Below are positions 29,856 to 61,045 of a stretch of 64,000 nt of DNA, one piece after another. Origin of the DNA: Verrucomicrobiota bacterium. Lineage in GTDB: Bacteria; Verrucomicrobiota; Verrucomicrobiia; Limisphaerales; UBA8199. A program made the position numbers and the translations under genes. The stretch lies in NCBI GenBank assembly GCA_029974925.1, contig JARKQH010000168.1, positions 888 through 64,887 of the forward strand, read 5' to 3'. Every line of letters begins with the position of its first letter. Position 1 is the first letter of the stretch. The notes beneath the pieces were generated by a model. The model was not told where the DNA came from. It saw only the letters and a program-made list of their open reading frames with translations, and ran no database searches.

Positions 29856-30487
29856 TGGCGGTAGAACTTGGCGACAGCTTCGGTGCGAGTGTGGACGTGC
29901 AGCTTTTCATAGATGCGGCGCACATAGTTCCGAACCGTGTGGATGCTGACCCCAAGGCGGTCGCCAATTTGCTTGTAGGGGCAACCCTCGGCCAGCGCCA
30001 GCAGGACCTCGCGCTCCCGCGCGGACAATTCCGCGTCTCCACCCGCGGCGGGTCGGGGAGATTGAAAAGACTGAACGACTTTGCGGGCAATGGAGGCCGA
30101 CATGGGGGCGCCTCCGCCGTGGACTTCCCGGATGGCTTCCAGCAATTGCGCGGGCGGCATGCGTTTGAGGAGATAACCGCTCGCGCCGGCCGCCAGCGCT
30201 CGAAAAATGCGGTCCGTATCCTCGAACACGGTGAGCATGAGAATTTGGGAATTGGGGAGCAGCGGCTTGAGCCGCTGAACGCACTGAATGCCGTTCAAGC
30301 CCTCCTCGAAATTGATGTCCATGAGCACGACGTCGGGCGCTTCTTTGGGAAGCTGCGCCAACGCTTCGTCGGCCGTCGCATAGGTGCTGACGCAACGAAT
30401 GTCGGCAGCCGAGTTCAAATAGCCGGCGATGTTCTCGCGAACTCCCGGATCGTCTTCAACAAGGGAAACCCGAATGATCGGCTTCAT
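29852..30487 (-). CDS. NarL/FixJ-type response regulator
   Basis: Receiver domain (VSLVEDD, VVLMDINF, MLTVF) plus LuxR HTH (LSAREREVLLALAEGCPYKQIGDRLGVSIHTVRNYV). ATGA overlap with the kinase stop. Confidence 0.9.
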   Translation of the reverse strand: MKPIIRVSLVEDDPGVRENIAGYLNSAADIRCVSTYATADEALAQLPKEAPDVVLMDINFEEGLNGIQCVQRLKPLLPNSQILMLTVFEDTDRIFRALAAGASGYLLKRMPPAQLLEAIREVHGGGAPMSASIARKVVQSFQSPRPAAGGDAELSAREREVLLALAEGCPYKQIGDRLGVSIHTVRNYVRRIYEKLHVHTRTEAVAKFYRQ

Positions 30488-33400: not shown

Positions 33401-33621
33401 TTGTCGAGCAGACCGTCCTCGACGGACCAGAACTGAATTTCAAATTCCGCCGTGTCCACCCGATGCGCGGCAGGCGCCCTCCCCGCCCCGATCGCCAGGA
33501 CATACCCCACCCCGGCCATCAACACGGTCCGCAAAAACCTTGGCCGGTCAAAGGGGTGAATTCCGGTTGGCCGTAGCCGCGCCATCATGGATTTCTTATC
33601 AGTGGCCAGGATGAGTGGCAA
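30484..33621 (-). CDS. sensor histidine kinase with periplasmic two-component-regulator propeller repeats and a Y_Y_Y domain
   Basis: Many Reg_prop-like repeats (..LWVGT..GL..). YYY-like region YRFRVTASDAEGSW. One TM segment. HisKA_3 RIARDMHDELGSKL, plus HATPase. Confidence 0.85.
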   Translation of the reverse strand: MPLILATDKKSMMARLRPTGIHPFDRPRFLRTVLMAGVGYVLAIGAGRAPAAHRVDTAEFEIQFWSVEDGLLDNSVTSIEQTGDGFLWVGTPRGLVRFDGWSFVSVNPRADHATNLAVTAQCVDAKGHLWFGTPKHGVFRLASETEWQSEATPMGLRDEPISCLGAGEQGEVWIGTDQGLVRWQEGRFERLLADPALADPAVLGLHVTRSNGVWVSTRSGLRQVVDGMLRPARFGPEVSGQSSPFLGIFEDRHGLLWAFGDSYLLNLSAGRRFNYFRGGGATTLQVWTICEGRPGELWIGTTGQGLFHFDGGRFRAVDLWESRDHSEVRALFSDREGNLWVGTQRGGLLRLRERTVRWFSGPGGPATCLAEDPTGTIWAGFQHGGLLAGRGGVLDPATVPAPLAAQNLITTLAFNRDRTLWLGTLGNGLHRMLDGRVMRFTLAQGLGDDSILASCTVGGGRTWVSTGDGCLHRFVGLARVSFGREEGLTGDPITAIRPAATAGVWVGTSKGEVLRFEPPNRFRRVSDPAMASGKPITALLEDSAGRLWVGTAGAGLYCQTGEAWRHWTLTNGLPDNAVIGLEESVRGDLWLATARGVSRLPRTWIGGSSSSHERLPLLIEFPAATAPSGALGWPRSLRSRDGRIWLATESGVVNFAPSALQPLRPAPRVRVEAVLADGRAQPRLAAASSAAALRLPSGLRDLELQFTAPSLTFPERTRFRHQLEGFDPDWQDSPGNRRARYGRLPAGEYRFRVTASDAEGSWTGAETELALVVPPPWWLSPWIVVLEVILPIALAATAARKLSHRRLRRQLARVQAQQAMERERSRIARDMHDELGSKLTRINFLCERARNELAEVSPAANKLDSIASTSRDLLHSLDEIVWAVDPRNDSLEHLVAYLGQYTAEYLQNTALPYDLKMPGTVPERALSAEVRHNLFLAFEEALGNALKHSKATHLAIRMTTADGCFVIHISDNGCGFVLPPPLAEPPHPPAAGWRRGGTGLRGMRARLGTIGGRCEIQSQPGRGTAITLTLPLATIEASPAPAPAL

Positions 33622-33663
33622 GAAGGCAGTCGGCGCCCGGGGCTCTCCGCATGAGGGCCCCCT

Positions 33664-36600: not shown

Positions 36601-36939
36601 AATGATGTCCGGGGCCCAGAACGTGTTCACGAACCCGGGCACGGCCGCCTGGGTCCAGGCGGGGGGACTCGAGAACACCGTAGGGCCCGCTTTCCAAACC
36701 ACTTTGTCGCTCGAGGATTTCGAAACGATATTGTCCCCCGTGCCATAAACATAGAACCGGTCTTTGCACTGAACGATGGTGGAGGGGTCATGGATGCCCA
36801 AATCACCCCGCAGATGGGGTGGGGCCGCGGGCGTGCCGAGCACGCTGGCGGCCCATGCGGACCCCATGATCGCAATCCGGAATAAATCCCGCCAGTGCCG
36901 GTTCGGACTGGCCGCGGTGGCTGGGAACAACTTTCGCAC
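33664..36939 (-). CDS. secreted GH43 (arabinanase-like) enzyme with 2 x (LamG plus Ig-like) units and an FFRL C-terminal tail
   Basis: GH43 blocks HDPSTIV, FWAPDIIYLNGEYRLYYSVS and IDPSVVLD..G..WLAFGSYW. Two LamG copies (WQRIFDFG.DTS). Ends ...KTFFRLQTP. Confidence 0.85.
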   Translation of the reverse strand: MRKLFPATAASPNRHWRDLFRIAIMGSAWAASVLGTPAAPPHLRGDLGIHDPSTIVQCKDRFYVYGTGDNIVSKSSSDKVVWKAGPTVFSSPPAWTQAAVPGFVNTFWAPDIIYLNGEYRLYYSVSTWGKQVSAIGLVTNPTLDPADPTYQWTDRGPVIQSQEGSPYNTIDPSVVLDGAGNPWLAFGSYWNGIYLVQLDLATGLRISSNSPTYRVAYNGSIEAAGLLRRGGFYYLFVNWGSCCSGVNSTYQIRVGRSTSITGPYLDRNGVDLVNRGGTLFLEGTGKYVGPGHAAFLEQDGQTWFSYHYYDANAYASWYGAYGQAKFDLQPLSWTPDLWPVFTNDWSAIYDFDTDARDERGQYYGLLEGGATVVTDPARGRVLNLNGAGQYVRLPPGVAYARTFAAVIKWNGGGAWQRIFDFGNDTSSYVMLTPSSGNGRLRCDIRASGTTQILETTSAVPVGVWTHVAVTLDGSRGVLYLNGAPVATNTVMNLSPLDVRAQTNHLGRSKFSADPDFNGQIAQFRVHGRALSAAEIAAPQPRIVRPAEGAAWWPGGSVVLQGSATDFNELPLGPGALTWRIEMVDNGTTNIVVGPLSGISEGVFSLPSNVSTSAVCRVALTATNSAGRTQTAFVHLTRGTSTTDWGSFYPFTTGGLDASNRYHASLMGGASVQTDAVRGSVLNLSGANQYASLPAGVGTFRTFAAWVKWNGGGAWQRIFDFGSDTSRWIMLTAANSDGRLEAAITTDRPNYVQVVRSPGGLPTGVWVHVAVTFDGRQAILYTNGVAVAVNHSANVLPSDIATPRAYFGRSQYAADPYLNGRLDSIRLSSRALSPAELFGPQPVILQPAVGATYSGGAVVSYSGAAYDYADSPLAPSAFAWSGELHQDGLSSPAFGPVSGVTNGTLQVPTTGLATTNAFYRLKLQTTDSQGNQQTVWRDLAPQIAHVELASVPAGLEIKLDGQAWTTPAVIPAVAGFSRTLEAPSPQSLGGSNYTFVLWSDGGAGSHVITIPSGNTTYTASFVPPSVTLNASGGQLTLSWPAWASPLVLHQTTNLTPPVAWTPVTNTPAIWNDSLLLTLPAVEEKTFFRLQTP
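34120..35901 (-). repeat. tandem ~295-aa coding duplication (LamG plus Ig-like unit, 2 copies)
   Basis: aa ~347-640 and ~645-940 of the GH43 protein align colinearly (RG.VLNL.GA.QY..LP.GV...RTFAA..KWNGGGAWQRIFDFG). Confidence 0.75.
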
Positions 36940-37027
36940 AAATTTCTTGCCGCCAGTTTACCCTCAAATTGCTCCCCCGTCATGTCCCATTAACGGGTGA
37001 CGCAAGAAATGTGAGAAACGGTCCCAG

Positions 37028-39595
37028 TCAATTGTCCTGCACGTGGGCGAGTCCCAAATCCACGTATTGTCCGCCGCCGGTCTGCCGGCAATGGATCGCC
37101 AGGAGGTTCTTGCCAGGCTTGAGGGCCCCTTGGCCGGCAGCCGTGAGCGGGAACAAGTCATATCCCGTGACGTAACCTGAGCACCGAACGGCCAGAACAC
37201 CATTGATGTAAACCTCGACATCCTCATCGTGGTGCAGCCAGGCCTGGAGATTCTTCAAATTGCCAGCCGGCAATTCGACTTCGCGGCGGAGCCAGATGTC
37301 GCGAGTGTTCCAAGTGGTGCCGAGCACCGCGCCGGGCGTCCCTGGCGTCCCAAAGCCGCTGCGCCCCTCTTTCCAGCTCGAATCATCGAACGACGGCTGA
37401 TACCAATCGCTGGCGGGCTGCGAGGTCGTGTAGCGCCACAAGGCAGGTTCGCGATCGGCGGCGGGAAGCACCGCCGTGATCGTCGGCGGTTGCGGCATGG
37501 GCGCCCATTGCTTCGCCTTGGTCCGGTCGCGACGGGCATATTTTTGCCACACAGACTTGTCGTAGAGCATCTGGGCAAAGACGCCCCCCACCACTGGCCG
37601 CGCCGTAAAGCCGACCTTTCGGGCGGTGCGGGTCTGGTACCAGTCGGTCATCGGGGACCGATCGGGCGTCTCGTTCAGAAAGCGATGGACCGGCTCGACC
37701 AACGCCGCAAAATCTCTGCGATCCTGCGTCAACGTGGCGGTCCACAGTATCCAATCAAGCTTGGTGTAGGTCTGGCGGTTGTCCAATGGCAAGCCGTAGC
37801 GATTCTGGACCTTCCGATAAAACGCCATTTCCTTGCGTGCGACTTCCGCCGGGAACAAATCCAGCCCCAGGATCTCATCCCAGATTAGATTATATTTCTG
37901 GCTCCAGGTGCCGGGCTTGTCGAAGGCGAGCCGGAACTTTTCTCCATCATCGGCCTCCTTGATCCAGCGTTCCGCAAACTGGCGGGCCAAAGCGAAGTAT
38001 TCGTCGGCCCTGGCCTGCTCCCCGCGCATCCGGCAAAGCTTGGCAAAGGAACCCAGGCCGCAAATTGCCTTGGCGCTCAAATTGACGTTGTGGGCGAGGT
38101 GGCCGGCGAAGTCGTCGGTGCAGAGCTGGTTTTCGGGGTCAAACCCCTTGGCCTTCAGGTATTCAGCCCATTTTTCCAATTGCGGCCAGTAGAGCGACGC
38201 AAACCCGGCGTGGCCCTCCATCTGGGCGACCGCCGCCATCAGAATCAGCAGGTTGCCCGATTCCTCGACCGGCATCTGATTCTCCTCGGTCCGCTCGCCT
38301 CCGCCGTAAACCTGGCCGTTGGCCTTGGGATAGGTGCCAAGGTCATGCGGCGCAAAGGGGAATTTCCAGCGGTCGCTTGCCGCATAATTCATGAACGGAA
38401 CCAGAAAGGATTTGGCCAGCGAAGGCCCGAAAAGCAGGAATTGCGGAGCCATGGGATAGAACACGTCGGAGGTGCCGATGCAGCCGTTGGAGTGGTTCTC
38501 CTTGGAGAATTGGAGCGGCTGGCCGTTGGCATCCGCCACGAACTTGCCCGCGGCGAAACACTGGCGGTAGGCGAGCGCGGCCAGCTCGGCGTATTGCCGT
38601 CCGCCTGCCTTCTCCAGGTCGGCCATCAGCTCGTCGTCAAACCTGGCACACCGCTTCTGCAACGCCGAATAGTCCTTCGCCGCGGCCCGCAACAGATCGG
38701 CGGCTTCCCATCCGTTCCGGCGCCAGTAGGGCCGCAGGTTTTTCTTCATGTACTGGATGGAATACAAATCGTCATAAGCCACCAGCAGCCAGCGGGAAAC
38801 CGGTTTCTGACTGACCCGGCCAAAATCCAGAGTCACGAAGCCGGCGGATTCGTTGCCTCCCGTGCCGGCAACCTCCGGCAGGGACGCGCCGGCGCAAAAG
38901 GCCTCCTGCGCCGCGGCCCGGCTGGCGCCGATGCCTTGGCGGGCCGCAACTTTCTTGTCTGCGGCGATGTACAGGTAGCCCCAGTCAATGCGCAGGTCGT
39001 CCCCTTTCTTGACCAGCACCGGCTGCTCGACCGAACCGCAGGCAACCGCGGTCAGCGGCCCGAATTCGTGCCGCTGCCACACGACCGGCTGCTGCGGCTC
39101 ATTGACCGCCAGTTCGGAAGCCGCGTCAAAATACACCGCGACCTCATGGCTGTTGCCGTCGGTGGCCTGGGCGTCCCAAGTCAGATAGGTTACCGGCCGC
39201 GATAACAGGTCTATGTCCTCGGGCAGCGCGGCGGTTAGAAAGGTGAGGGTGACACGGACTCCATTGCCTTCGAAGGAGTAGAGGGTCCGGGTCGGCAGCA
39301 CCGCCACACTGCGCTGCGGCAACGCCGGCACGCTTTCCGGGTCGCGGCCCATCAGACGGAAGGCCTTGCCATCAATCCGAATCAGACTGGCCAAACGATG
39401 CGGCTTGCCCGTCCAATGCACCGTGTCGGCATCGGTCAGTTTGTCCGCCGGTGACCAAATGCTGAAGTAAGGATCGCAAGCGACCAGTGGAACAGCCGGC
39501 GGACGCAGGCTTTGTCCCGGGAGGTTGAAGCTGATGAACACGCCGGCCAACAGGGCCAGGCTCCTCGCTGCCATACGAATTGATGATACGCTCAT
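37028..39595 (-). CDS. glutaminase A-like (DUF4964/DUF5127/DUF4965/DUF1793) putative glycoside hydrolase with a C-terminal jelly-roll-like module
   Basis: N-terminal RPPAVPLVACDPYFSIWS..D.L......HWTG. Long alpha/alpha-barrel-like core. The C-terminal 135 aa are homologous to the GH2 tail. Confidence 0.75.
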   Translation of the reverse strand: MSVSSIRMAARSLALLAGVFISFNLPGQSLRPPAVPLVACDPYFSIWSPADKLTDADTVHWTGKPHRLASLIRIDGKAFRLMGRDPESVPALPQRSVAVLPTRTLYSFEGNGVRVTLTFLTAALPEDIDLLSRPVTYLTWDAQATDGNSHEVAVYFDAASELAVNEPQQPVVWQRHEFGPLTAVACGSVEQPVLVKKGDDLRIDWGYLYIAADKKVAARQGIGASRAAAQEAFCAGASLPEVAGTGGNESAGFVTLDFGRVSQKPVSRWLLVAYDDLYSIQYMKKNLRPYWRRNGWEAADLLRAAAKDYSALQKRCARFDDELMADLEKAGGRQYAELAALAYRQCFAAGKFVADANGQPLQFSKENHSNGCIGTSDVFYPMAPQFLLFGPSLAKSFLVPFMNYAASDRWKFPFAPHDLGTYPKANGQVYGGGERTEENQMPVEESGNLLILMAAVAQMEGHAGFASLYWPQLEKWAEYLKAKGFDPENQLCTDDFAGHLAHNVNLSAKAICGLGSFAKLCRMRGEQARADEYFALARQFAERWIKEADDGEKFRLAFDKPGTWSQKYNLIWDEILGLDLFPAEVARKEMAFYRKVQNRYGLPLDNRQTYTKLDWILWTATLTQDRRDFAALVEPVHRFLNETPDRSPMTDWYQTRTARKVGFTARPVVGGVFAQMLYDKSVWQKYARRDRTKAKQWAPMPQPPTITAVLPAADREPALWRYTTSQPASDWYQPSFDDSSWKEGRSGFGTPGTPGAVLGTTWNTRDIWLRREVELPAGNLKNLQAWLHHDEDVEVYINGVLAVRCSGYVTGYDLFPLTAAGQGALKPGKNLLAIHCRQTGGGQYVDLGLAHVQDN

Positions 39596-50063: not shown

Positions 50064-50675
50064 TTGATTTATGAACTGAGGTCCATCCTCGAACGGATTG
50101 ACCCGGCCCGGTTGTTTCCGCGCGCCCAACCCTTGGAAATCGAGTTGGGCTGCGGGGATGGTTCCTTCCTTGTCGAATACGCCCGGCGGCATCCCGAGCG
50201 GAATTTCATCGGCGTGGAACGGCTTCTGGGACGAATCCGAAAGCTTGACCGCAAAGGGAGGCAGGCGCGTTTGACCAACCTGCGCGGGGTCCGCCTCGAA
50301 TGCGCCTATTTCCTCGAATACCTGGTCCCGCACCACTCGGCCGCCGCCTTGCACCTTTATTTCCCGGACCCTTGGCCCAAACGACGCCATTGGCGGCACC
50401 GGCTCGTCAATGAGCGGTTTCCGACAGTCGCATGGCGCGCGCTTGCGCTCGGCGGGACGGTCTATCTCCGAACCGACCATCCGGCCTACTTCCAACAAAT
50501 GCGGGAGGTTTTTCAGGCGCGACCGGACTTTCGCGAGGTCGCCACACCGGCGGAGTTGGCGTCGCTGCTGACGGACTTCGAGCGGGAATTTCAGGCGCGG
50601 GGCGTGCAGACCCTGCGCGCAGCTTACCAAACGGTCGGGCCAGCACCCCAAGCGGAACCTGCCGCTCGGGCCTAA
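50064..50675 (+). CDS. trmB: tRNA (guanine46-N7)-methyltransferase
   Basis: EIELGCGDGSF..., NFIGVE, and FPDPWPKRRHWRHRL. No in-frame ATG is nearby, so the TTG at 50064 is proposed as the start (uncertain). Confidence 0.8.
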   Translation: MIYELRSILERIDPARLFPRAQPLEIELGCGDGSFLVEYARRHPERNFIGVERLLGRIRKLDRKGRQARLTNLRGVRLECAYFLEYLVPHHSAAALHLYFPDPWPKRRHWRHRLVNERFPTVAWRALALGGTVYLRTDHPAYFQQMREVFQARPDFREVATPAELASLLTDFEREFQARGVQTLRAAYQTVGPAPQAEPAARA

Positions 50676-51109
50676 ATATCAATCACCGGCCCATTGTCGT
50701 CATCCCGGTTGGGCGGGCGGCGGCGGCGGACCTCGACGCGGGATTTGCCGGTGCCGGTCAGGAAGTTCAGCACGGTGGAGACGATGCTGATGATCAGGGC
50801 GCCCAGCAGGGCCCAGCCAAAACCGTCAATCTCAAAATGATTTCCCAGCAGCAGGCTGACCAAATAAAGCATCAGCGCGTTGATCACCAGCATGAACAGG
50901 CCCAGGCTGAATACCAGCAGGGGCAGGGCCAGAAACATCATGACCGGCCGGATGAACGCGTTGAGAATGCCGAGCATTAGCGACGCCACAAAGGGTGTCA
51001 GCAAACTGTCATTCCGGAACCGGAGTCCAGGAACAAGATAGACGGCCACCAGCACTGCCAGAGTGTTGATGAGCCAGCTTTGCAGAAACTTTTTCAAACC
51101 AGGCTGCAC
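50672..51109 (-). CDS. phage holin family 4 / DUF360 membrane protein (YvlD-like)
   Basis: SWLINTLAVLVAVYLVPG...LGILNAFIRPV...LGLFMLVINALMLYLVS...IDGFGWALLGALIISIV. Start at GTG 51109 or TTG 51097 (no ATG). Confidence 0.7.
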   Translation of the reverse strand: MQPGLKKFLQSWLINTLAVLVAVYLVPGLRFRNDSLLTPFVASLMLGILNAFIRPVMMFLALPLLVFSLGLFMLVINALMLYLVSLLLGNHFEIDGFGWALLGALIISIVSTVLNFLTGTGKSRVEVRRRRPPNRDDDNGPVIDI

Positions 51110-51267
51110 GTGTCGGGCGGATGAAACACCTCCTGCAGCATGGCCGAGGAAGCGGAGATTGACAAGGGAACACCGCGAATCTGGGGACAGACCGGGGGCC
51201 GCGTGCACGGTTCTCCGCGAGCGGAGGGGTATCAACGAGCCGCACGGAGGGCTCGAGAATGCCGTGC

Positions 51268-54200
51268 TCAGGGCGCAATTCGGATTCGATAATAGCGCGC
51301 CGGGTTGGTGGGCGCGGCGGTGTCGGTGTAGGTGTCGGTGAATACCTGGGTCGAGGCAACCCCCGGCGGCGCCGGGTCCATCTCGTTGGTTAAGGGGCGC
51401 GTCACGTCCTTGAAACTGCCGGTGAAGTTCCCGTTCGTGTCCGAATTGGAGACTTGGATGCGGTACCGCGTGCCCCCTGCCGAGGCCCACGCCAGATTGA
51501 CCCAGCCATTGGTGAGGCGTTCCAGGCTCAAGATGCGAAAAGCCGAGGCGGCATTCGTTGGGTTGGTGTTCGCCCGATATTCTTCGTAATTGCTCTGTCC
51601 GTCCTGATCTTCATCCCCCGCCGGGTCGGTGATGCCATAAGCGGCTTCCCATGCATCCGGCAGGCCGTTGGTATTATCATCTGGCGGGGCAATGATCGCC
51701 AGATTCAGCGTGGCAATCGAACTGGTGGCCTGGCCGTCAGTGGCAGCGAACGTGAATCGGTCCGTGCCCCGGAAACCGTGGGCAGGGTGGTAGGTGACCG
51801 TGCCCGCCTCGGGCACAAAATCACGCAGCAGTCCCTGGGTGGTCGGCGCGCGGATTTGGAACGTCAGGGCATCGCCGTTGGGGTCCGAGGCGGTCAGCGT
51901 CAGGTTGGTGGGTGCATCGCCGAAGATCGTGCGGCTCAGGTTCACCACGGTCGGCGGGTTGTTGGACTGTCCCGTGCGAAACCGCCAGACGGGGCTGGTG
52001 GCGGTCTGGCCACTGCCATCGGTCACGGTGACAAACCACTCGTAAGACTTGCCGGCTTTCAAGCCGGGCCAAACGCAACTGCTCACACTGCCCGGCTGCA
52101 ACCCGGCCTCCGTGCCCAGGACAACGAAGTTCGTGTCCGGCGGAATCCGGCCATCGGCTTGCAGGTTGTAGGGGAACGAAAACTCGCTATCCTCGTCCGC
52201 CTCGTATTGACGCAGCCAGGGGGAGTAGGTTTCGACCCGGACGAGGTTGTTGCTGGGAGAGAAGGTCATGATGCGCAGCAGGCCCTGCCCGCCGTTGTCG
52301 TAAAACTGATAGTCGGAAATCAGGGAGTGAACCGTGTTTCCAGCAAAGGTATCCTTGCGCCAGCCTTCGCCGCTGACATGGCCGCCCAGCATGAGGAACA
52401 GGTTGGTGTGCCCTTTCAAGGCGTGGTAGATGGCGCTGGCCTGCGCGCTCAGGGTGGTGGGCGTTTGCGCGCCCCCCAGGTAGTGGGTCACGACAATGGC
52501 GCGGCGGTGGGCGTTGGTGCGGAGCACCTCGCTGCCCCAGGCGAGCACCGCCGGATTGGCGTTCGTGTCATACTCGAAATACAACACGATGAAGTCCAGG
52601 CCGCTGGCGCTGAAGAAGTCGAAGTGGTTGTTGTTATTGGTGCCGTAATGGCCGCCGTAATACGACCGGCCCGCGAAACGCGACACGCCGAAGTAGGTGT
52701 TGTAGTAGAGGGTCGTGCCATTGGGATCGCCATTGGGTTCCTGGTCATGATTGCCGACCGCCACGCCATAGGGAATGCCATCCGGCAGTTGCGTGCGGTT
52801 GGGGTTCTCGAGGCGGTACATCGCGTTGGTGGCATTGCGCCACTGTGTGAGATTGGGCTGCCCCTGATAAATGTCCCCGTCGTTGACGATATCGCCGAGG
52901 TTGGACACGTAAGCAATGTTGCGCGCCACGCGGTTGGTGATGATCCATTCGGTTTGGGCGATGAACATCTCCTTGGTGCCGCCATATTTCTCCGCGGCGT
53001 AGTTCTGGGTGTCGGGTAGCAGGACAATCGAGAAATCCGGCGCCGGGTAGGGGACAAACACCTCGCGGCCATAAAACCTGGCCGTCAGGTTGCCCGGAAC
53101 GTGGTTGGTGACCAGCACCTGCAGAGCGGTTGACACCCCGGCATTCGGCGTGTTGTTCGTGGGCGAAATCAAGTGGGCTCGGGCGGGAACCAGCAGCGCT
53201 GTCACGTTGGCCGGATCCAGCCCATGATACGCCGGGTCGGCGCTTACCGCCGGCGAGAGGACCAGCATGTACGGCAGAACCTCGGTCGAGGGATTGTTCT
53301 GGCCGGTCACCGTTACCGTATGCGGCACGTTCCACTCATGAGGTCTGAAGGTCAGGGTGGACGGGCTGGGAATGCCGCGGCCAGGTTGGCTGCTGCTGAC
53401 CGCGACGGTGACGTTCGTAGCAGGGCGGGAATGGAGCACCACGCTGAAAGTCGCCGTCCCGCCATAGGCGGCAGTCACCAGGTTGTTCGTGGGAGTGACC
53501 GTGAAGCCGGGGGACGGCGCGGGGATGAAGACAAACGAGGCCACCGGTTCGTTGTCCGGCGTCTGCAAGCCGTTTCCGGGGGTGTCGCGGGACTGGATTT
53601 CCCAGCCGTCCCCGGTGATTTGATAGCTCAGGATATTATCACCGTTCCATGCGCCGCCGCCCTCGGGCGAGAGAATCAGCACGCCATTGGTGGGCGAACG
53701 GCCGGGAATGCGCAAGTCCCACCTTCCCGGGCCGAGATTGGTGACGGTGAATTGCGGGCTGGCGCCGCTGAACAGGTCAATGCTTCCGTCGCCCCGGAAG
53801 CGCCCCGAGATAAGGGCCGTGTTCGTCCGCGGAATGAAGACAAACGCAACCGGGTCCTGCTCGTAACTGGAGTAGGCAGTCTGGGCATTGTCACGGACGA
53901 AAACGTTCCAGGTGCCGTCGTTGGTGTTAACTTGAGACAAGGCGAAATTGTTCTCGTCTTTGGCGCCGCTCACCAGCAGCACCCCGCTGGTCCGCGAGTC
54001 AATGCCGTGGCTCCGGAGGTCCACGACCGAGCGGCCCGCCGCCACGCCCCGGAAGTGCGTGCCCAGCACCAGACCCGGCGAGCCGGTGAAAAGGTCGTTT
54101 GTTCCGCCGTTGACGCCGGCCGAGTTGCGCGCGAACCCGCCAAGATACCGGTCGTAGGGAAACCATGCCGCCGCCACGTTCACGTTATACTCAATCGCAT

Positions 54201-54945
54201 TTCCCGCCCCGCCTTCCGTCGCAAGAAACGTCACGATCCGATGCGCGCCGCTGGCGTTGGTCTCGAACGCGGAGATGGGGTAGCCGTTTGATCCAAAGTT
54301 GTCGCGGCCGTTTTCGGTCACCGAAGTCATGACCACCCCCCGCTGCGCATCTTCGACGGACTCTGTGCCCACGCCCACGCGAAAGCTGTAGTCGCCGCGG
54401 TTGTAGGAAATCAGTTGAAAATTGTTGATGCTGAGGGTCTGGATCACCTCGGCGTTGTTGTTGGTTTCAACGTCCGAGACCTGATTCACTTTCAGCATGC
54501 CGGCCGCCACGCCATGATGAACCGGTTCCGCAAGGGCTGATGAGGCAACCAGGAGCAAAACGGCCAGAGCGGAAGCCACGCCAATCGCGGTCGTTGCCGC
54601 CGTGAATGCCTGCCCGGCGGCGGCTGGAGACCCATCCCGCGACGGTTGGGCAGCACGGACATTTCTGTCCGCCCGCTTTCGGCGACTCCTGCCTTCCAGA
54701 CGGACAAGAATGTCCGCGCTCCGACGGAGGATGCGACGCGTGGTGAGCGGCGATGATGGGGCGGCCGCCACGTCCGGGACCGGGGTTGTTTCAAACGCAG
54801 GAGAAATACGCATCGGAGGATTGGCTGGCCCGCCACCCCGGCGGCGGTGGCGGCTCATTCGTGCAAGTTCGCCTTGGGGCGCCAAGGGCCCGGAAAAAAG
54901 CGGGACGGCGACTCCGCCGTCCCGCTTCGAAACACCATAAGTCAA
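51268..54945 (-). CDS. giant secreted protein: shared N-module, Calx-beta/cadherin-like repeat, calcineurin-like metallophosphoesterase core, Ig-like domain, TSP3-like acidic linker, YYRI tail
   Basis: Signal-like TAIGVASALAVLLLVASSALA. Metallophosphoesterase motifs LPDTQNY, GDIVNDGD, GNHD, VVTHY and GGHVSGEG. Linker DEDQDGQSNYEEYRANTNPTN. Ends ARYYRIRIAP. The true start is uncertain because the signal peptide begins at about aa 115 of the maximal ORF. Confidence 0.8.
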   Translation of the reverse strand: MTYGVSKRDGGVAVPLFSGPLAPQGELARMSRHRRRGGGPANPPMRISPAFETTPVPDVAAAPSSPLTTRRILRRSADILVRLEGRSRRKRADRNVRAAQPSRDGSPAAAGQAFTAATTAIGVASALAVLLLVASSALAEPVHHGVAAGMLKVNQVSDVETNNNAEVIQTLSINNFQLISYNRGDYSFRVGVGTESVEDAQRGVVMTSVTENGRDNFGSNGYPISAFETNASGAHRIVTFLATEGGAGNAIEYNVNVAAAWFPYDRYLGGFARNSAGVNGGTNDLFTGSPGLVLGTHFRGVAAGRSVVDLRSHGIDSRTSGVLLVSGAKDENNFALSQVNTNDGTWNVFVRDNAQTAYSSYEQDPVAFVFIPRTNTALISGRFRGDGSIDLFSGASPQFTVTNLGPGRWDLRIPGRSPTNGVLILSPEGGGAWNGDNILSYQITGDGWEIQSRDTPGNGLQTPDNEPVASFVFIPAPSPGFTVTPTNNLVTAAYGGTATFSVVLHSRPATNVTVAVSSSQPGRGIPSPSTLTFRPHEWNVPHTVTVTGQNNPSTEVLPYMLVLSPAVSADPAYHGLDPANVTALLVPARAHLISPTNNTPNAGVSTALQVLVTNHVPGNLTARFYGREVFVPYPAPDFSIVLLPDTQNYAAEKYGGTKEMFIAQTEWIITNRVARNIAYVSNLGDIVNDGDIYQGQPNLTQWRNATNAMYRLENPNRTQLPDGIPYGVAVGNHDQEPNGDPNGTTLYYNTYFGVSRFAGRSYYGGHYGTNNNNHFDFFSASGLDFIVLYFEYDTNANPAVLAWGSEVLRTNAHRRAIVVTHYLGGAQTPTTLSAQASAIYHALKGHTNLFLMLGGHVSGEGWRKDTFAGNTVHSLISDYQFYDNGGQGLLRIMTFSPSNNLVRVETYSPWLRQYEADEDSEFSFPYNLQADGRIPPDTNFVVLGTEAGLQPGSVSSCVWPGLKAGKSYEWFVTVTDGSGQTATSPVWRFRTGQSNNPPTVVNLSRTIFGDAPTNLTLTASDPNGDALTFQIRAPTTQGLLRDFVPEAGTVTYHPAHGFRGTDRFTFAATDGQATSSIATLNLAIIAPPDDNTNGLPDAWEAAYGITDPAGDEDQDGQSNYEEYRANTNPTNAASAFRILSLERLTNGWVNLAWASAGGTRYRIQVSNSDTNGNFTGSFKDVTRPLTNEMDPAPPGVASTQVFTDTYTDTAAPTNPARYYRIRIAP

Positions 54946-54957
54946 GCGCCAGCCGGC

Positions 54958-57900
54958 TCAGGGCTCACGAACGCGGTAGAACGCGGCGTTGGGCAGCGGC
55001 GCATTGTCGGTGAACGTGGCGATGCCGCCTTCCGGAACGGCCACGGTGCCCAGTTCCGTCCAACCCGCCCCGAGCGCCGGGGCGCGCAGCACCGTGTAGG
55101 TCTTGCCGACCTCGGCGGCGAACTTGACCTGCACGCTGGTCGGGCCGACCACCGGCGGCAGCATCCGGATCGCCGTGTAGTAGATCACCAACTTCGGTCG
55201 TGCATCGAGCGAGCTGTACTCCGCCGTCGCAATGCCCCAGCCATCGCCGCCATACGGCCACGGCAGGATGACCCAGCCGTAATTGGGCGCTCCGTTGGCC
55301 CAAAGTTGCACATCGGCCGTCATGTCGAATGTCTCGGAGCCGCTGGCCACGTTCGGAGTCAGGGACGGATTGCCGGCAGTGGCCGAAGCCGCTGCCACGG
55401 CTTCGACGCCATCGGCTTGAATCCCTTCGACAAAGAAACTCCAAGTATTGGTATCCTGCCACGGGATCAGCATACGATGGAATGTGCCGCCATCCCCCGG
55501 CCCGGCAGCCGTCCGGCTGAACAGGTGAAGCACAGCCGCCTGAATCTTGGCGCCGTAAGGCACCTGGCCGGCACCGGGACCGAAGATGCCGTCAAACCGG
55601 AACAACACATGTTCCGCGTCCTCCAGGCCGCTGGTGACCTCGAAATCAGGAAACACATGCTCGATGGCGGAGTACTCCGTGTCGGGGGTCCCTTCGCGAA
55701 TGCGGGTGTCCTTGGCGCCGGTGTAGCCGTTTTCGCCCTGCCGGAAGCTCGCCTCGATCAGGCCCGCCGGAATCCACTTGACGACCAGCCGCGGCCGGAA
55801 GGTCACGTTGGTGTGTTCGCACGGACTGAACGCCGTGGCGTTGTTGTTGTCCACCCAGCTTGGCATCACCCAGCCGTAGTTGGGTTCGCCGTTGACCCAG
55901 GCTTGCACATCCGGCAACACCCCCACGCGCATGATTCCGGTTTGCGTGGTGCCGTAGCCCGAACCTGCCCCCGTGCCCATTTGGGAGTAATAGGCGCTCT
56001 TGGCTTCCACGTCATCAAGCTGCACGCCATCCCCGATGCTCTCATACGTCACCGAATCGGCGTCCCAGTCAATCAGCATGCGGTGCAGCGGACTGCCCAC
56101 TCCCGTATCCGTGATGTTGAGATACAAGTCCGCTTCAATCACCGTCGCCCCGGGCGGGATTTGTCCCGGGTTGGTCCCGATAATATCGTCAAACCGCAGC
56201 AACCCTTCACGCGGGATTTCCGTCGCGGTGCGATTGGCCAGTTGAATCCCATTGGCCGGAGAGCTTCCCGCGGGCAGCGGCGTCGAATAGGACGTGATCC
56301 ACACCTCGCAATCCTTCGCGCCGGTATAAACACCAAAGCCGCCGTCCTTGCCCTGCTGGAAGTCACAGACATGCACCAGCGACAGCTCGATCTGCTTGCT
56401 CGCGGCAACCGTGCCGCCGTCGCCATCCGCAAGCGTAACGGTGACGGTGCGCGGATCCATCGAGGGGGTGCTGCTGACGCTGCGGAAGGTGATGTTCCGC
56501 AACAGCGCCTGGGCGGCCTCCGGCGTGGCCGAAACGTTGAGGCTGACCACCAACGGGCTGGTCCCGACTCCGCCGCTGAACGTCCCGATCGTGACGCCGC
56601 CGTAAGTGACGTTGTTGCCACTCACGCCAATCTGGCCAAATTCCGTCCCCGTGTTGCGAATCTCCAACCGGTCATTGCTGGTGCCGTTGGCCGTCAGCGC
56701 CACCGTGAGGGAGCCGCCGTCGTAATCGGTGGTGTCCGGATCGCTGATCGTAGCCAGGCCGTCAATGCCAATGCCCGGCCAGCCAATCCCGTAAACCAGG
56801 GTGCCCGAAGGCAGGGTCAGCACCGGCTCATTGTCCAGCGTCGTCGCGCTGAGTTTCGGCGTCAGCGCCGCATAGGCGGCATCCGTCGAGCTCACCGTGC
56901 CATTCAACGTGTAGGAGACGCCGCCATCGGCGACCAAATCGTCAACCGCGGTCACCGTGAAGCTTTGCGGGACGTTCCAGTTCGCCGGCGTGAACGTCCG
57001 CGAGGCCGGCGTCACCGTTCCCTCGGTGGGATCGCTCGAAGTGAAACTGACAGTCACATCCGCCGCCGGTTGCGAGTTCAATACCGCGGTGAAATTCGCC
57101 GTCGTCCCGGGTTCGCTCACCGTCACCCCGGCAAACGGGCTCAGAGTGATGCCCGGAACATCGTTGTCCAGGTTCACCACCGAGACATCCAGTGCGTTGA
57201 GGCCATTGTAGGCCGGATCCGAGCTGACGGCGGCCGCCGTCACAATCGGGTAGGTCACATTCCCATCCGGAACCGGATCATCCACTCCCGTCACGGTCAC
57301 CGTTTGCGGGAGGTAGTAATCCAGCATGGTGAAGGTGAGGCTCGACGGCGACACGGTGCCCTCGGTGGTGTCGCTTGACGACAGCGCGATCGTCACGTCC
57401 TCCATTGGCTGGGTGTTGAGCACCACGGTGAAGGTGGCGGTCCCCCCGGCCTCCGTCGTCGTCAGGCTGTTGGCGCTGAGGGTGATGCCCGCTTCGTTGT
57501 CGGCGTTGAGCGCGCCGACATCCTGCGGGTCCAGGCCGTTGAATCGCGGGTCGGCGCTGGTGGCTGGCGACAGCACGATCGTGTAGGCCACCTGCCCGTC
57601 GCTGTCGAAGTCGTCCATCCCATACACCGTGTTGGTCTGCGGCTCCCACCAGTTTTCCGGCGTAAAGGTCATGGTGGCCAGTTCCACCGTGCCTTCGGTT
57701 GGATCGCTCGAGCTCACGTTGATCGTGACATCCGCCGTCGGCTTCGTGTTGAGCGACACCGAGAAAGTCGCAAAGCCGCCTGCCTCCGAGGTTTGCAGGT
57801 TGGCCGACGGGGCGACATTGAACCCCGGGCCTGGCGCCGGAATGAACACGAACGAGATGGCGGGCTCGGTGATGATCACCCCGTCAACGATCTTATAGGG

Positions 57901-59103
57901 GGTCTGCCGGCCGTTGCTCGGCGTGTCCCGCGATTCAATCAGCCAGCCCAGGCCGTCATCGGTCATCTGGTAGTTGACAATGTTGTCGAGGTTGTATTGC
58001 CCGCCTCCCTCCGGCGAGATGATCAGCACGCCGTTGGTCGCCGCATAGTTCTTCATCTTGAGCAGCCACTGGCCGACCTTCACCTGTTCCACGGTGAATT
58101 GAGGCTCGGCGCCGCTGTAAATGATAATGCTGCCATCGCCGTTGAAGCGGCCGGAAACCACCGAGGTGTCCGTCCGCGGAATAAAGACAAAAGCCACCGG
58201 GTCCTGCTCGTAGCTGCTCGCGCTCGAGGTGGCGGCATCATGGATGTAAATCGTCCACGTGCCATCCTCGTTGGCTTGCGAGAGCGCGAAGTTCCCTTCG
58301 TCCTTGCCATGATTCACCAGCAGCACCCCGTCGGTCTGCGAATTGATCCCCAGCGACCGCAAATCGAGGAGCGACTTGCCTTGGTCCTGCACCCAACCCC
58401 CGGCGGCGGCCAGCTCGTTGGACACCCCCAGATGAATGAAATGCGTCCCGTAAACAATCTGCGGCGACGCAATCAAAAAATCGTTCGAGCCGCCGTTGAC
58501 GCGGTTCACATTCCGCGCCAGCCCGCCCAGATAGCGGCTGTACGGAAACCAGGCTCCCGCCACATTCACGTTGTACTCGATGGTGTTGCCCGCGCTGAAT
58601 GCATTGCCATACGTGGGATTGTTGCTCCACCGCGAAGCGTGGGTGCAGATGCGGTAGGGAATCGAGTCATGGATGAAACTGTGGGCATACGGGGAGTTCG
58701 TCGGCATCGGCGTCCAGTTGGTCCGGCCGTTCTCCGCCACGCACGAGATCAGAATGCCGTTGGTGATGTCGTCCGCCGCCGTCTCACCAATCTGCACGTA
58801 ATAATCGCCCGTGTTCCAGGTCGGCACGCCGTTGGCCAGGTCGGCTTTCACCGGCCGAAAATCGTTGATCGTGATCAGCGGAAACACATTCAAATTGGTG
58901 TTGGAAGCGTCATTGGGCACCATCTGCTCGACTTTGAGCAGGCCGGCGGAGATGCCGTGGGTGACTTGCTGGGCTTGGGCCAGGGACAGCCCGAAAGCCA
59001 GCAGCGCCATCCCCAGCAAGGCCGCCACTCCCCGCCAGGAATTCACACGCGTTGTTTTGCCTCCTTTGAGGCCCAATCGTCGGATGCAGGTTTGTGTCTT
59101 CAT
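54958..59103 (-). CDS. giant secreted protein: shared N-module, 3 Calx-beta/cadherin-like repeats, 2 DNRLRE-like modules, FYRV tail
   Basis: Signal VAALLGMALLAFGLSLAQA. Repeats of T.EAGGTATF.V.LN.QP..DVT....SSD.TEGTV.P..LTFT..NW..PQ..TV. Two modules with LLRFD/VLFRFD, HRMLI.W and PNYGWV. Ends AAFYRVREP. Confidence 0.85.
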   Translation of the reverse strand: MKTQTCIRRLGLKGGKTTRVNSWRGVAALLGMALLAFGLSLAQAQQVTHGISAGLLKVEQMVPNDASNTNLNVFPLITINDFRPVKADLANGVPTWNTGDYYVQIGETAADDITNGILISCVAENGRTNWTPMPTNSPYAHSFIHDSIPYRICTHASRWSNNPTYGNAFSAGNTIEYNVNVAGAWFPYSRYLGGLARNVNRVNGGSNDFLIASPQIVYGTHFIHLGVSNELAAAGGWVQDQGKSLLDLRSLGINSQTDGVLLVNHGKDEGNFALSQANEDGTWTIYIHDAATSSASSYEQDPVAFVFIPRTDTSVVSGRFNGDGSIIIYSGAEPQFTVEQVKVGQWLLKMKNYAATNGVLIISPEGGGQYNLDNIVNYQMTDDGLGWLIESRDTPSNGRQTPYKIVDGVIITEPAISFVFIPAPGPGFNVAPSANLQTSEAGGFATFSVSLNTKPTADVTINVSSSDPTEGTVELATMTFTPENWWEPQTNTVYGMDDFDSDGQVAYTIVLSPATSADPRFNGLDPQDVGALNADNEAGITLSANSLTTTEAGGTATFTVVLNTQPMEDVTIALSSSDTTEGTVSPSSLTFTMLDYYLPQTVTVTGVDDPVPDGNVTYPIVTAAAVSSDPAYNGLNALDVSVVNLDNDVPGITLSPFAGVTVSEPGTTANFTAVLNSQPAADVTVSFTSSDPTEGTVTPASRTFTPANWNVPQSFTVTAVDDLVADGGVSYTLNGTVSSTDAAYAALTPKLSATTLDNEPVLTLPSGTLVYGIGWPGIGIDGLATISDPDTTDYDGGSLTVALTANGTSNDRLEIRNTGTEFGQIGVSGNNVTYGGVTIGTFSGGVGTSPLVVSLNVSATPEAAQALLRNITFRSVSSTPSMDPRTVTVTLADGDGGTVAASKQIELSLVHVCDFQQGKDGGFGVYTGAKDCEVWITSYSTPLPAGSSPANGIQLANRTATEIPREGLLRFDDIIGTNPGQIPPGATVIEADLYLNITDTGVGSPLHRMLIDWDADSVTYESIGDGVQLDDVEAKSAYYSQMGTGAGSGYGTTQTGIMRVGVLPDVQAWVNGEPNYGWVMPSWVDNNNATAFSPCEHTNVTFRPRLVVKWIPAGLIEASFRQGENGYTGAKDTRIREGTPDTEYSAIEHVFPDFEVTSGLEDAEHVLFRFDGIFGPGAGQVPYGAKIQAAVLHLFSRTAAGPGDGGTFHRMLIPWQDTNTWSFFVEGIQADGVEAVAAASATAGNPSLTPNVASGSETFDMTADVQLWANGAPNYGWVILPWPYGGDGWGIATAEYSSLDARPKLVIYYTAIRMLPPVVGPTSVQVKFAAEVGKTYTVLRAPALGAGWTELGTVAVPEGGIATFTDNAPLPNAAFYRVREP
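56824..57828 (-). repeat. three tandem ~110-aa Calx-beta/cadherin-like coding repeats
   Basis: aa ~441-775 of the 1396-aa track ORF. The repeated consensus is visible by eye. Confidence 0.7.
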
Positions 59104-59166
59104 TTTTGTTGGTTTTACGGTTAAGGTGCTGTGATTGGAAACTGACAAAAATCGCGCTCTCGCGTC

Positions 59167-59988
59167 TCAAGGCATGCCTGGCTGGCGCGCCGAATCATGC
59201 GCCAGGTTCCACACGTGCATGAAGCGCTTCTGCGTTACCCACTCGGCGTGACCGTCGCAAAACACAAAGTTCTGGCCCTCGTTCCCATGGTTGTCGGTCT
59301 TGCTGTCCGGCCAGTTGTTGATGTCCTTCGGGTCTATCGTGGTCACCGTGTCATCGGCGTCCGTCAACAGGAAGATTTGCGACGGCCCGGGCTTGGTCCC
59401 CAGCGCCAGCGAATAGTTGTAAATCACAAAAGTCGCCACCGTGGACTCTTTCTTCTTTGTCGCCACGGCGGTCCCTCCGGAACGGTCGGTGAAATTCCCA
59501 AAACATTCATAGCTGGTGCCTGGCGCGTCCGGCCCGGCCCCGTTGTTGCAGAGGTCACGAAGCGTCTCCCCGTTCCACTTGGCCGTCATGTTCGTCCGAA
59601 TCAGGTTCCGCGTGCTCGGACACAAGTAGCTGCCTTGGGATTTAACGTAGGTCGGCCACAACCAGGTCAGGTCATCATCCGAACTCGACCGGTCGGTTTT
59701 GCCCCCAGCCGGAATATTTCCCACTTCGGGAGCCCACCACGTCGGCCCGCAATAGTTGCCTTGCGAGTCGTCCGCGTACATCTGGCTGCCCAAGCCCAGT
59801 TGCTTGAGATTGTTCAGGCAGCCAATCCGCTTGGCGCGGTTCTTGGCTCGGGCCAGCGCAGGCAGCAGCATGGCAGCCAAAATGGCGATGATCGCAATGA
59901 CCACGAGCAGTTCAATGAGAGTGAATCCGGAGCGACGTTTCGGCTTGGGGGAGTGGAGCATAAGAGAGCAAGAAGATTTCATCATCAT
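59167..59988 (-). CDS. prepilin-type N-terminal cleavage/methylation domain protein, DUF1559 (H-X9-DG-like) pseudopilin
   Basis: [25 protein letters not shown] leader with Glu+5. C-terminal [19 protein letters not shown] (the H-to-DG spacing is 10 here). Start is one of four ATGs between 59982 and 60006. Confidence 0.9.
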
Positions 59989-60035
59989 GTTAGTGGCTGA
60001 AATCATTTTTTAGTGTAGCGCGTTAACGCACCAAC

Positions 60036-60066
60036 CTTTTTACACTATTCTTTTTCATTCTGTCAA
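60036..60066 (-). promoter_or_regulatory. candidate sigma70-like promoter of the pseudopilin/giant-protein operon (TTGACA, 17 nt spacer, GTAAAA)
   Basis: On the minus strand, TTGACA corresponds to plus 60061-60066 and the -10-like GTAAAA/TAAAAA to plus about 60036-60043. It lies in an AT-rich island. The palindrome GCGTTAACGC (60020-60029) sits at the expected transcription start. Confidence 0.4.
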
Positions 60067-60304
60067 CTTCTATCGCAGAGTTTTTTTAATCTCCAGGCTC
60101 TCCATCCGCAACAAAAGGCTTGTTACAATCTGGTAACGGGGGGCGTTAACGTTATTGTGAAGTCTTGCTTCGCCGACTCTTCTCCCATCGCTTCCGCCTT
60201 TCCTTCGCTCCTGAAAAGCCGGTTTGCCCCCAAGCCCCTCTTTCGATTCGTTTCTCAGGTGAAACGCATTGCGAAAGCGCAGTCGTCAACCATAATGGCC
60301 GCGT

Positions 60305-61045
60305 ATGCTGAAACTGGGCGTTAACATTGACCATGTGGCAACGGTGCGGGAAGCGCGCTATCGCGGGCGTGGGAGGGGGGAACCCGACCCCGTGGCCGCG
60401 GCGTTGGCCAGCGAAGCGGCCGGGGCCCATGGCATTACCGCCCACCTGCGCGAAGACCGCCGCCACATCCAGGACCGGGACGTGTGGAAGCTGCGGGAGG
60501 TCATCAAGACGCGCCTCAACCTGGAAATGGCCAACTCTGCGGAAATCATTGAAATCGCGCTGAAGCTTCGGCCCGACATTGTCTGTCTGGTCCCGGAGCG
60601 CCGGCAGGAAGTGACCACCGAGGGCGGATTGGACGTGGCGGGCAACCTTGCCGCGTTAACCGAAACCCGCCGGCGCATGAACGACGCCGGCGTCGAAGTG
60701 AGCTTGTTCATTGCGCCCGACCCGGAACAAATTGAAGCAGCCGCCCGCACCGGCGCCCAGTTCATCGAGCTGCACACCGGTTCCTTTGCCGAGAGTTTTG
60801 CCGCCCAGGCGGGCGTCGAGGAGGAACTGGCCCGCCTCGTTTCAGGCGCGGAACAGGCCCACCGTCTCGGCTTGCGAGTCAATGCCGGCCACGGGCTGAA
60901 CTACGACAACCTGCCGTGGATCCACCGCGTGCCGCACCTGGTGGAATTGAACATCGGCCATAGCATTGTGAGCCGGGCGGTGATGGTGGGCATGGAGGCG
61001 GCGGTGCGGGACATGCTGCGATTGATGGCCCCGTATCGGGGTTGA
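60305..61045 (+). CDS. pdxJ: pyridoxine 5'-phosphate synthase
   Basis: [27 protein letters not shown] and CLVPE.R.E.TTEGGLD. Confidence 0.95.

Follow-up and report, generated by a model that had tools for sequence, protein, structure and literature searches.

A DUF1559-type pilin gene linked to genes for two large secreted proteins in Verrucomicrobiota: a putative module for capture and hydrolysis of an extracellular polymer

We analysed a stretch of 64,000 nucleotides from a Verrucomicrobiota bacterium (Limisphaerales, UBA8199; assembly GCA_029974925.1, contig JARKQH010000168.1, positions 888 to 64,887 of the forward strand), hereafter the window, in which three consecutive genes encode a pilin-like protein and two very large proteins, giant-1 and giant-2. 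The giants share an N-terminal module of about 385 amino acids (aa), hereafter the N-module, and across species a pilin gene precedes the genes that encode this module far more often than expected. We give a probability of about one half to the reading that these genes form a conserved module of subdivision-3 Verrucomicrobiota which captures and hydrolyses an extracellular, anionic, phosphate-containing polymer, with the pilin aiding export or display and with expression in two units. This proposal is made because giant-1 carries domains resembling polyanion binders of the CBM96 type, because relatives of these domains are fused to phosphatases, and because the same pilin subfamily is found beside other phosphoesterases.

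Few paralog families of Planctomycetota, Verrucomicrobiota and Armatimonadota are as large as the prepilin genes of the DUF1559/PulG-like type, and in the literature that we searched DUF1559 always appears as a large paralog family without an assigned function. A pilin subfamily with fixed orthologous partners in more than 20 species would make the function of DUF1559 experimentally tractable, and the N-module shared by these partners could be the recognition element. Additionally, our analysis defines an uncharacterised, widespread subfamily of predicted secreted metallophosphoesterases with a D-x-Q first motif, and the recurrent association of CBM96-like modules with phosphatases suggests phosphorus scavenging from anionic polymers by soil and freshwater Verrucomicrobiota.

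Linkage of pilin and N-module genes across species

A locus scan with one genome per species yielded 76 loci, of which 72 were assessable for pilin linkage. Most belong to Verrucomicrobiota (metagenome-assembled genomes, MAGs, of subdivision 3/Pedosphaera/Limisphaerales, and Verrucomicrobiaceae), the others to Pirellulaceae, Phycisphaerae and Chthonomonadaceae. In 24 of the 72, the first N-module gene has a prepilin gene on its own strand at most 1.7 kb upstream, where about 2.2 such loci would be expected from a base of 50 prepilin motifs in 1.38 Mb (P ~4e-17). The gene after the pilin is almost always of the giant-1 type (19 intact cases) and is then followed by one of the giant-2 type. The giant-1-type layout, namely N-module, three repeats, middle domain, two CBM96-like modules and C-terminal domain, is kept in more than 20 species. 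The complete genome OW818681.1 (L009) is among the carriers of the module; the loci of the pilin-linked kind yielded no cultivated carrier, and L033 is a Limisphaera MAG. None of the six neighbouring genes examined (pdxJ, the sulfatase gene, the holin-like gene, orf207, the HerA-like gene and CstA) travels with the module, except pdxJ and the sulfatase gene in L004, a close relative at 94-97% identity whose downstream flank already differs from that of the window. The adjacency of pilin and giants, whose persistence in relatives had been set beforehand as a check, is thus conserved while the flanks differ. The gene order varies, being giant-1, pilin and enzyme in four species (L014, L042, L052 and L067).

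The linked pilins resemble one another along their whole length (45-67% identity), and pilins that are not adjacent to N-module genes are alike only in the N-terminal ~60 aa. Invariant within the group are the motifs DR..DDD, C-P-x-T-x-N, SYE-x-FG, NNWPD and DNHG...F-x-DGHA, and by these alignments the module-linked pilins make up a single orthologous subfamily, probably within DUF1559. The same subfamily precedes a PHP-domain protein in L049. Other pilin families take a similar place outside Verrucomicrobiota: they stand directly upstream of small N-module proteins in the Chthonomonadaceae loci L071 and L072, and divergently beside genes joining N-module and metallophosphoesterase in five of nine planctomycete loci (three Phycisphaerae, two Pirellulaceae; P ~3e-5). 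In Phycisphaerae we also observed a pilin gene followed by a gene for a protein with three lamin-tail domains.

One could argue that such adjacency reflects co-regulation only, for example in a phosphate- or polymer-responsive regulon, with the pilin as an interchangeable DUF1559 paralog and the neighbourhood functionally loose. Many N-module genes have no pilin neighbour, genomes from related phyla have 67-79 DUF1559/PulG-like paralogs each (PMC13274419, PMC4072686, PMC2754498, PMC10632474), and separate cis-elements together with a terminator, described below, suggest that the genes are not all on one message; all of this would fit. On the other hand, the adjacent pilins are one orthologous subfamily and not random paralogs, the linkage outlasts changes of flanks and of gene order, it is seen again in two further phyla with different pilin families, and the window contains one prepilin-motif gene only in its 64 kb. 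On balance we consider co-regulation by itself an improbable explanation.

Two further observations concern the composition of the loci. Downstream of giant-2, L002, L005, L010, L011 and L067 carry a TPR protein of ~300 aa and a third gene combining N-module and metallophosphoesterase (e.g., L005:9362-10285 and L010:10421-11422), a pair that is found neither in the window nor in L004. In L001-L003, L048 and L049 the giants are split into 2-4 consecutive open reading frames (ORFs), resembling long-read frameshift errors, so that public gene calls and protein lengths for this family are often wrong.

The pilin-like protein, the two giants and their shared module

All three genes lie on the minus strand, and the initial annotation was right in describing three co-directional reading frames. 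The pilin-like gene (59167-60006) encodes 279 aa as a maximal ORF; its start had earlier been placed at the ATG at 59988. The protein begins with a prepilin leader (...KRRSG|FTLIELLV) that has every feature of a class III signal peptide: the leader is short and basic, Gly and Phe occupy positions -1 and +1, Glu stands at +5, and the alpha-1 helix is hydrophobic. A globular domain of ~230 aa and a C-terminal H-X10-DG motif follow. The protein is matched by PF07963 (1.8e-10) and by TIGR02532 (32.6 bits, cut-off 16.3), and a profile search of the PDB aligned its alpha-1 helix, and this helix only, with those of PilA, GspG and PilE. The assignment to DUF1559 made in the initial annotation is marginal for this protein taken singly: PF07596 (DUF1559, SBP_bac_10) scores 23.6 bits against a cut-off of 23.3, over 27 residues corresponding to profile positions 3-29 of 268. 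Among the orthologs, 18 of 21 match PF07596 (best E 6e-9), with the globular domain outside the match. TIGR04294, which describes an H-X9-DG C-terminal domain, stays below its cut-off (16.7 bits, cut-off 19); the motif reads H-X10-DG here and is kept in all orthologs. The protein thus resembles the DUF1559 and H-X9-DG families (PF07596, TIGR04294) in its prepilin leader, helix, CLNNLKQLG... segment, C-terminal His...DG and taxonomic range, but differs from the bulk of DUF1559 proteins in that only about 30 of 268 profile positions match, in the H-X10-DG spacing and in having a fixed genomic partner. A full-length match to GspG, the major pseudopilin of type II secretion, is not obtained: TIGR01710 reaches 31.7 bits against a cut-off of 88.85 and covers residues 26-78 only.

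An alternative view of this protein is that of an inner-membrane-anchored periplasmic binding protein, with an SBP_bac_10 (DUF1559) globular domain carried by a prepilin-type helix and no part in a filament, which would capture the product of the phosphoesterase or a signal for a transporter or sensor, while the giants are exported independently. The DUF1559 family has been called solute-binding (PMC2754498). The globular part of ~230 aa is far larger than in GspG-type pseudopilins and has no relative among solved pilins beyond the alpha-1 helix, the NCBIfam models for GspG, GspH and PilA match the N-terminus only and far under their cut-offs, and the occurrence of the pilin beside enzymes lacking the N-module (L067, L049) fits a role centred on substrate or product better than docking. 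Against this, the PF07596 match covers only the first ~30 profile positions and says little for a binding-protein fold, no transporter gene is linked in the window or was noted in relatives, and the leader and G|FTLIE site are canonical for substrates of prepilin peptidase. We regard a binding-protein role as unlikely, and by analogy the pilin probably serves the export or display of N-module proteins.

Giant-1 (54958-59103, minus strand; 1381 aa from its ATG, the maximal ORF extending to 59148) is a predicted non-catalytic binding protein, either secreted or at the surface. Its signal peptide (59103-58969) is followed by the N-module (58968-57814), three Calx-beta-like repeats (57813-56824), a middle domain without family assignment (56823-56389), two CBM96/DNRLRE-like modules (56388-55234) and a C-terminal beta-sandwich ending in AFYRVREP (55233-54961). 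No Pfam or NCBIfam family matched giant-1 and no catalytic domain was detected; PF24517 and NF033679 in particular gave no direct match to the whole protein or to isolated segments at E up to 1-10, and sequence and profile searches of the PDB with the C-terminus returned nothing. The DNRLRE-like modules of the initial annotation hold up through homology and fold. Homologs of the last 480 residues (43-54% identity) carry PF24517 and are named DNRLRE domain-containing proteins by NCBI, and an AlphaFold2 (AF2) model of the C-terminal region (pLDDT 87.8) has 8WAB (TMt 0.72), 7VBO (TMt 0.66) and 4YCG as its top Foldseek matches. By transitivity and by the fold of 7VBO, both modules group with CBM96/DNRLRE.

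Characterised proteins with this fold, the alginate-binding 7VBO (PMC9971899) and the chondroitin-sulfate-binding carbohydrate-binding module (CBM) 8WAB, bind polyanionic polymers. Each of the two giant-1 modules has the same fold (TMt 0.66-0.73, probability 1.0), but identity is 14-16% and neither direct HMM searches nor PDB sequence-profile searches find a match. Furthermore, the giant-1 modules form a tandem pair whose sequence homologs are fused to phosphatases of PF00149, PF04185, PF00245 and PF09423 (Metallophos, PLC-type phosphoesterase, alkaline phosphatase and PhoD), and not to polysaccharide lyases.

Giant-2 (51268-54579, minus strand) is, from its sequence, a predicted secreted metallophosphoesterase. 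A signal peptide and the N-module (54531-53506) are followed by a single Calx-beta-like repeat (53505-53191), an Ig-like domain (53190-53026), the metallophosphoesterase (53025-52201), an FN3-like domain (52200-51976), a Big_9/cadherin-like domain (51963-51694), an acidic TSP3-like linker (51678-51541) and a C-terminal beta-sandwich ending in RYYRIRIAP (51540-51271). The metallophosphoesterase core named in the initial annotation stands on its homologs and motifs: PF00149 does not match giant-2 or the isolated enzyme segment directly, while a search with the central 331 residues found 567 homologs, the closest at 69% identity and many of them carrying PF00149, and homologs of the enzyme region at 50-63% identity pass this profile. 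Residues D46, Q48, G85-D86, N133-H134-D135, H222 and G256-H257 are invariant or nearly so in the subfamily, which keeps the GD, GNHD, H and GH motifs of calcineurin-like metallophosphoesterases (PF00149) and differs from them in its first motif, D-x-Q. The Big_9 and Cadherin_5 assignments are clear (residues 995-1084 of the maximal ORF; PF17963 47.6 bits, cut-off 23.6; PF17892 31.1 bits, cut-off 26.5). For the Calx-beta and TSP3 names given earlier the profile matches stay sub-threshold, at 18 bits for PF03160 (cut-off 27; E 0.003) and, in giant-2, at 16.1 bits for the bacterial TSP3 repeat PF18884 (cut-off 25); the Calx-beta-like repeats as such are real. Three other candidates were rejected. 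A match to the pilus-system protein Amuc_1099 (NCBIfam, 24 against 50) falls short of the cut-off and involves no more than the acidic TSP3-like linker, and matches to LapA and BACON were sub-threshold.

The initial annotation described the giants as a binding or adhesin-like protein and an enzyme, with signal-like N-termini and a homologous N-terminal module, and this description is borne out. BLASTP aligns the two at 46% identity over ~576 aa (E 5e-128), running from the signal peptide through the N-module of ~385 aa to one repeat of ~110 aa, and the single repeat of giant-2 aligns to each of the three repeats of giant-1 at 35-46% identity. No Pfam or NCBIfam model matches the N-module, whether in the whole giants or in isolated segments, and PDB sequence and profile searches found nothing for it. 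An exhaustive search of 1.84 billion cluster representatives (clusters at 50% identity) retrieved 319 proteins at E <= 1e-3, in which the N-module usually occupies residues ~50-400 of proteins of 1000-4000 aa and is sometimes present in several copies. The AlphaFold model, based on a 22-sequence alignment, is all-beta (pLDDT 81.7, pTM 0.84). Profile-profile comparison shows homology between the second and the last third of the module (probability 95%, E 6e-9) and a weak alignment of the first third in the same register; every unit closes with an xFVFIP-type strand. We thus describe the N-module as a tandem array of three beta-sandwich units, jelly-roll-like in form, and assign it to no known family.

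Structural and viral comparisons of the N-module bear on another possibility, an adhesin or pilus-tip system in which a pseudo-trimeric module resembling the tip of a tail fibre caps or decorates a type IV pilus, the giants attach to anionic matrices and the phosphoesterase remodels the matrix. The best match in a viral library was a cyanophage tail fibre, a weak one at E 7.6e-5, and single-unit viral matches of ~115 columns were mostly to unnamed or uncharacterised viral proteins, with a few phage tail or tail-repeat proteins. The best Foldseek matches were a C1q trimer and a single-chain TNF trimer. Adhesins typically have repeats of the Calx-beta-like, Big_9 and cadherin-like kinds, and in L075 (3683-14539, labelled an Alcaligenaceae MAG) the N-module is iterated up to about 6-7 times in one protein of 3600 aa, which would also suit an adhesin. 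However, the C1q and TNF resemblances are weak (TM ~0.3), too weak for the module to be filed under that fold, with nothing in the PDB at E <= 1e-3, and the recurrent fusion partners are hydrolases (metallophosphoesterases), with the CBM-like modules elsewhere fused to phosphatases, which points to substrate processing. We think an adhesin system very unlikely. As a separate observation on repeats, Pirellulaceae proteins of more than 3600 aa (L039, L041) have the repeats, middle domain and two CBM96-like modules duplicated as a whole.

Regulatory elements and transcription units

The three genes had been read as a single pseudopilin-led operon with gaps of 18 and 12 nt. These figures are correct for the maximal ORFs only; with the likely starts the gaps are 63 nt, using the giant-1 ATG that L004 also uses, and ~378 nt, so the near-zero spacing is an artefact of taking maximal ORFs where the DNA is GC-rich. 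In the case of giant-2, the maximal ORF (to 54945, 1225 aa) runs through a terminator-like hairpin and then across sequence that has diverged in L004 the way non-coding DNA does. We set aside the starts at 54945, ATG 54858 and ATG 54813, since they lie upstream of conserved palindromes, the extension is not conserved in L004 and the two ATGs come just past the terminator. The first in-frame start after the palindromes is GTG 54579, which is the likely start and gives ~1103 aa; L004 has an ATG five codons before the position equivalent to this GTG, and a canonical signal peptide begins there.

Between giant-1 and giant-2 lie two conserved elements. An intrinsic-terminator-like hairpin, GAAGCGGGACGGCG-GAGT-CGCCGUCCCGCUUU with a U-run (54894-54928, minus strand), begins 30 nt past the giant-1 stop and has a stem of 14 bp by RNAfold (54928-54915 / 54910-54897). 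In L004 the stem is identical while its flanks diverge with indels, and the T-run is interrupted. A hairpin and T-run also follow the giant-1 stop by 19-37 nt in L005, L009, L010, L011, L019, L021, L022, L024 and L046, and the stem sequences are unrelated in five of these nine species, which argues for function rather than inheritance. Further into the intergenic region, a pair of palindromes of the form CGGACA-N4-TGTCCG (54701-54716 and 54656-54671, minus strand) stands ~45 nt apart; the 64 kb hold just these two matches, against 0.05 expected, and the box in which they sit, GGAGCGCGGACA-N4-TGTCCG, is invariant upstream of giant-2- or giant-3-type genes in L004, L005, L011 and L002. The pair may be a candidate operator pair or 5' untranslated hairpins of a giant-2 unit. 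In the 63-nt gap between pilin and giant-1 no hairpin was noticed on reading the sequence. Given that the terminator and the conserved palindrome pair separate the giants, a simple operon of all three genes is improbable, and the single-operon reading is given up. The most economical reading of these elements is one of two regulated units, pilin with giant-1 and giant-2 by itself, where partial read-through would be possible.

Upstream of the pilin gene, the sharply AT-rich island reported earlier (60007-60151, minus strand) is real, with a GC content of 0.435 in 60000-60199 against ~0.6 on either side. It contains a promoter-like pair, TTGACA (60066-60061) and GTAAAA (60043-60038) on the minus strand with a 17-nt spacer, and the palindrome GCGTTAACGC (60029-60020, minus strand) just downstream of these hexamers. 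A second CGTTAACG copy lies ~120 nt upstream of this palindrome (60151-60144, minus strand); CGTTAACG occurs twice in the whole window, both times in the island. An inverted repeat GTTAC-N6-GTAAC (60137-60122, minus strand) completes the set, and GTTAC/GTAAC repeats recur in relatives. In 8 further species the pilin gene is preceded by the palindrome in the form GCGTTAAC[GC]C. We also saw GCGTTAACGC upstream of a giant-1 gene that has no pilin, in L046. In 6 species the distance from TTGACA down to the GFTLIE codon is 131-146 nt. The promoter-like pair of the initial annotation is thus present and the place of its first hexamer is kept; a consensus promoter scan did not call it, and promoter-like sites were no more frequent than in shuffled sequence, so that what supports a putative promoter is position across species only. 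E. coli-type Pho boxes were not evident upstream on reading the sequence by eye, with no dedicated search run, and Rfam gave nothing in 50500-60400 at E <= 1.

A possible role in polymer capture and hydrolysis

In the mechanism that we propose, giant-1 would capture an anionic polymer through its two CBM96-like modules, and giant-2 would hydrolyse the phosphate-containing polymer outside the cell. The pilin would be processed by prepilin peptidase and enter a type II secretion (T2SS) or type IV pilus (T4P)-like filament, where it would help N-module proteins to cross the outer membrane or keep them attached to the filament. The N-module would be the element that links export or display of the two giants to the pilin. 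Pilin and giant-1 would be transcribed from the conserved promoter, with GCGTTAACGC as an operator-like palindrome, and end at the conserved terminator, and giant-2 would be controlled separately through the palindrome pair. The data show the gene content, the domain identities, the conserved linkage and the cis-elements; the substrate class, the two-transcript model and any physical interaction of pilin and cargo are what we infer.

We propose the N-module as coupler because of an analogy. In type IVb pilus systems, the exoproteins TcpF of V. cholerae and CofJ of enterotoxigenic E. coli (ETEC) dock on the minor pilins TcpB and CofB, respectively (PMC10120004, PMC9565799, PMC6048534). As in those systems, a pilin-family gene is linked to genes for Sec-exported proteins, and an N-terminal element, recognised by the pilin in TcpB/TcpF and CofB/CofJ, follows the signal peptide. 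The differences are considerable: TcpF and CofJ are encoded inside a full pilus-biogenesis operon, are recognised through a short disordered peptide and meet a minor pilin trimer at the pilus tip, whereas the present module, known from genes alone, has no biogenesis genes at the locus, a folded element of ~385 aa and a DUF1559-type pilin. Taken further, the N-module might be an export or docking domain read by a dedicated DUF1559-type pilin, and some DUF1559/PulG-like paralogs in the Planctomycetes-Verrucomicrobia-Chlamydiae (PVC) group and Armatimonadota might be cargo-specific adaptor pilins that load or tether large exoproteins on a shared T2SS/T4P-like machine. This extension is tentative, and we hold it to be rather doubtful.

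Pseudopilins in degradative clusters are already known. In Verruconatronum alginivorum, whose genome has 67 paralogs, a pulG-like pseudopilin paralog is encoded inside an alginate cluster, and another pseudopilin, outside the two clusters, is over-expressed on alginate (PMC13274419). The parallel is a pseudopilin encoded inside a cluster for degrading a particular substrate, which in our case is putative; the alginate cluster differs in having alginate lyases, in lacking the N-module and in giving no evidence that an orthologous pair of pilin and cargo is conserved across many species. What is new in our case is an orthologous pilin subfamily with fixed partners across many species, an N-terminal domain not described before, and conserved cis-elements.

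This leads to the points that weigh against the proposed mechanism, which touch the pilin, the coupling and the substrate. Only the N-terminus of the pilin-like protein connects it, at the level of sequence, to a filament, and prepilin peptidase, assembly ATPase, platform protein and secretin were not found among the larger ORFs of the window (scanned over 16.7-64 kb). About half of the N-module loci are without a pilin nearby. Giant-1-like genes occur without a pilin in at least L046, L017, L034 and L026, and all Verrucomicrobiaceae loci are without a pilin neighbour, with proteins of ~1900 aa joining N-module and metallophosphoesterase that stand alone; from these Verrucomicrobiaceae loci it follows that the N-module does not need an adjacent pilin. 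Conversely, the enzymes that follow the pilin in L067 are two beta-propeller/PF04185 phosphoesterases lacking the N-module, which weakens a strict docking of N-module to pilin. The idea of coupling through the N-module suffers from both kinds of case. As for the substrate, known CBM96-like folds bind carbohydrates and not phosphodiester polymers, the first metal-motif His of the enzyme is replaced by an invariant Gln (D-x-Q, not D-x-H), and a PDB profile search did not find a solved relative of the metallophosphoesterase region.

Some features of the surrounding sequence deserve mention. Both giants close with the aromatic-aromatic-Arg tails that the initial annotation had noted (FYRV/YYRI). 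The C-terminal beta-sandwich of ~90 aa with its ending [FY][FY]R[VIL] and 1-6 further residues is not peculiar to the giants: 73 of 858 long ORFs from the window and related loci have such an ending, among them a GH43+LamG protein (33664-36939, minus strand; ...KTFFRLQTP) and an 860-aa ORF (7777-10359, plus strand; ...TRYFRLR). This domain has no Pfam match and may serve these Verrucomicrobiota more generally in sorting or anchoring proteins by their C-terminus.

The three-gene block is bordered by a divergent pdxJ upstream and, downstream, by genes for a PF04020 membrane protein and a HerA-like ATPase and by cstA. The maximal ORF of the PF04020 gene (Phage_holin_4_2 / DUF360-like; 50672-51490, minus strand) overlaps the 3' end of giant-2 by ~220 nt; its domain begins at residue 134, so the true start is probably near 51100. 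Elsewhere in the window, positions 27519-39595 form a separate polysaccharide-utilisation neighbourhood, which comprises a GH2 protein (27519-29855), a LuxR-type response regulator (29852-30487) adjoining a hybrid Reg_prop/Y_Y_Y histidine kinase (30484-33621), the GH43+LamG protein mentioned above and a glutaminase-A-like six-hairpin protein (37028-39595).

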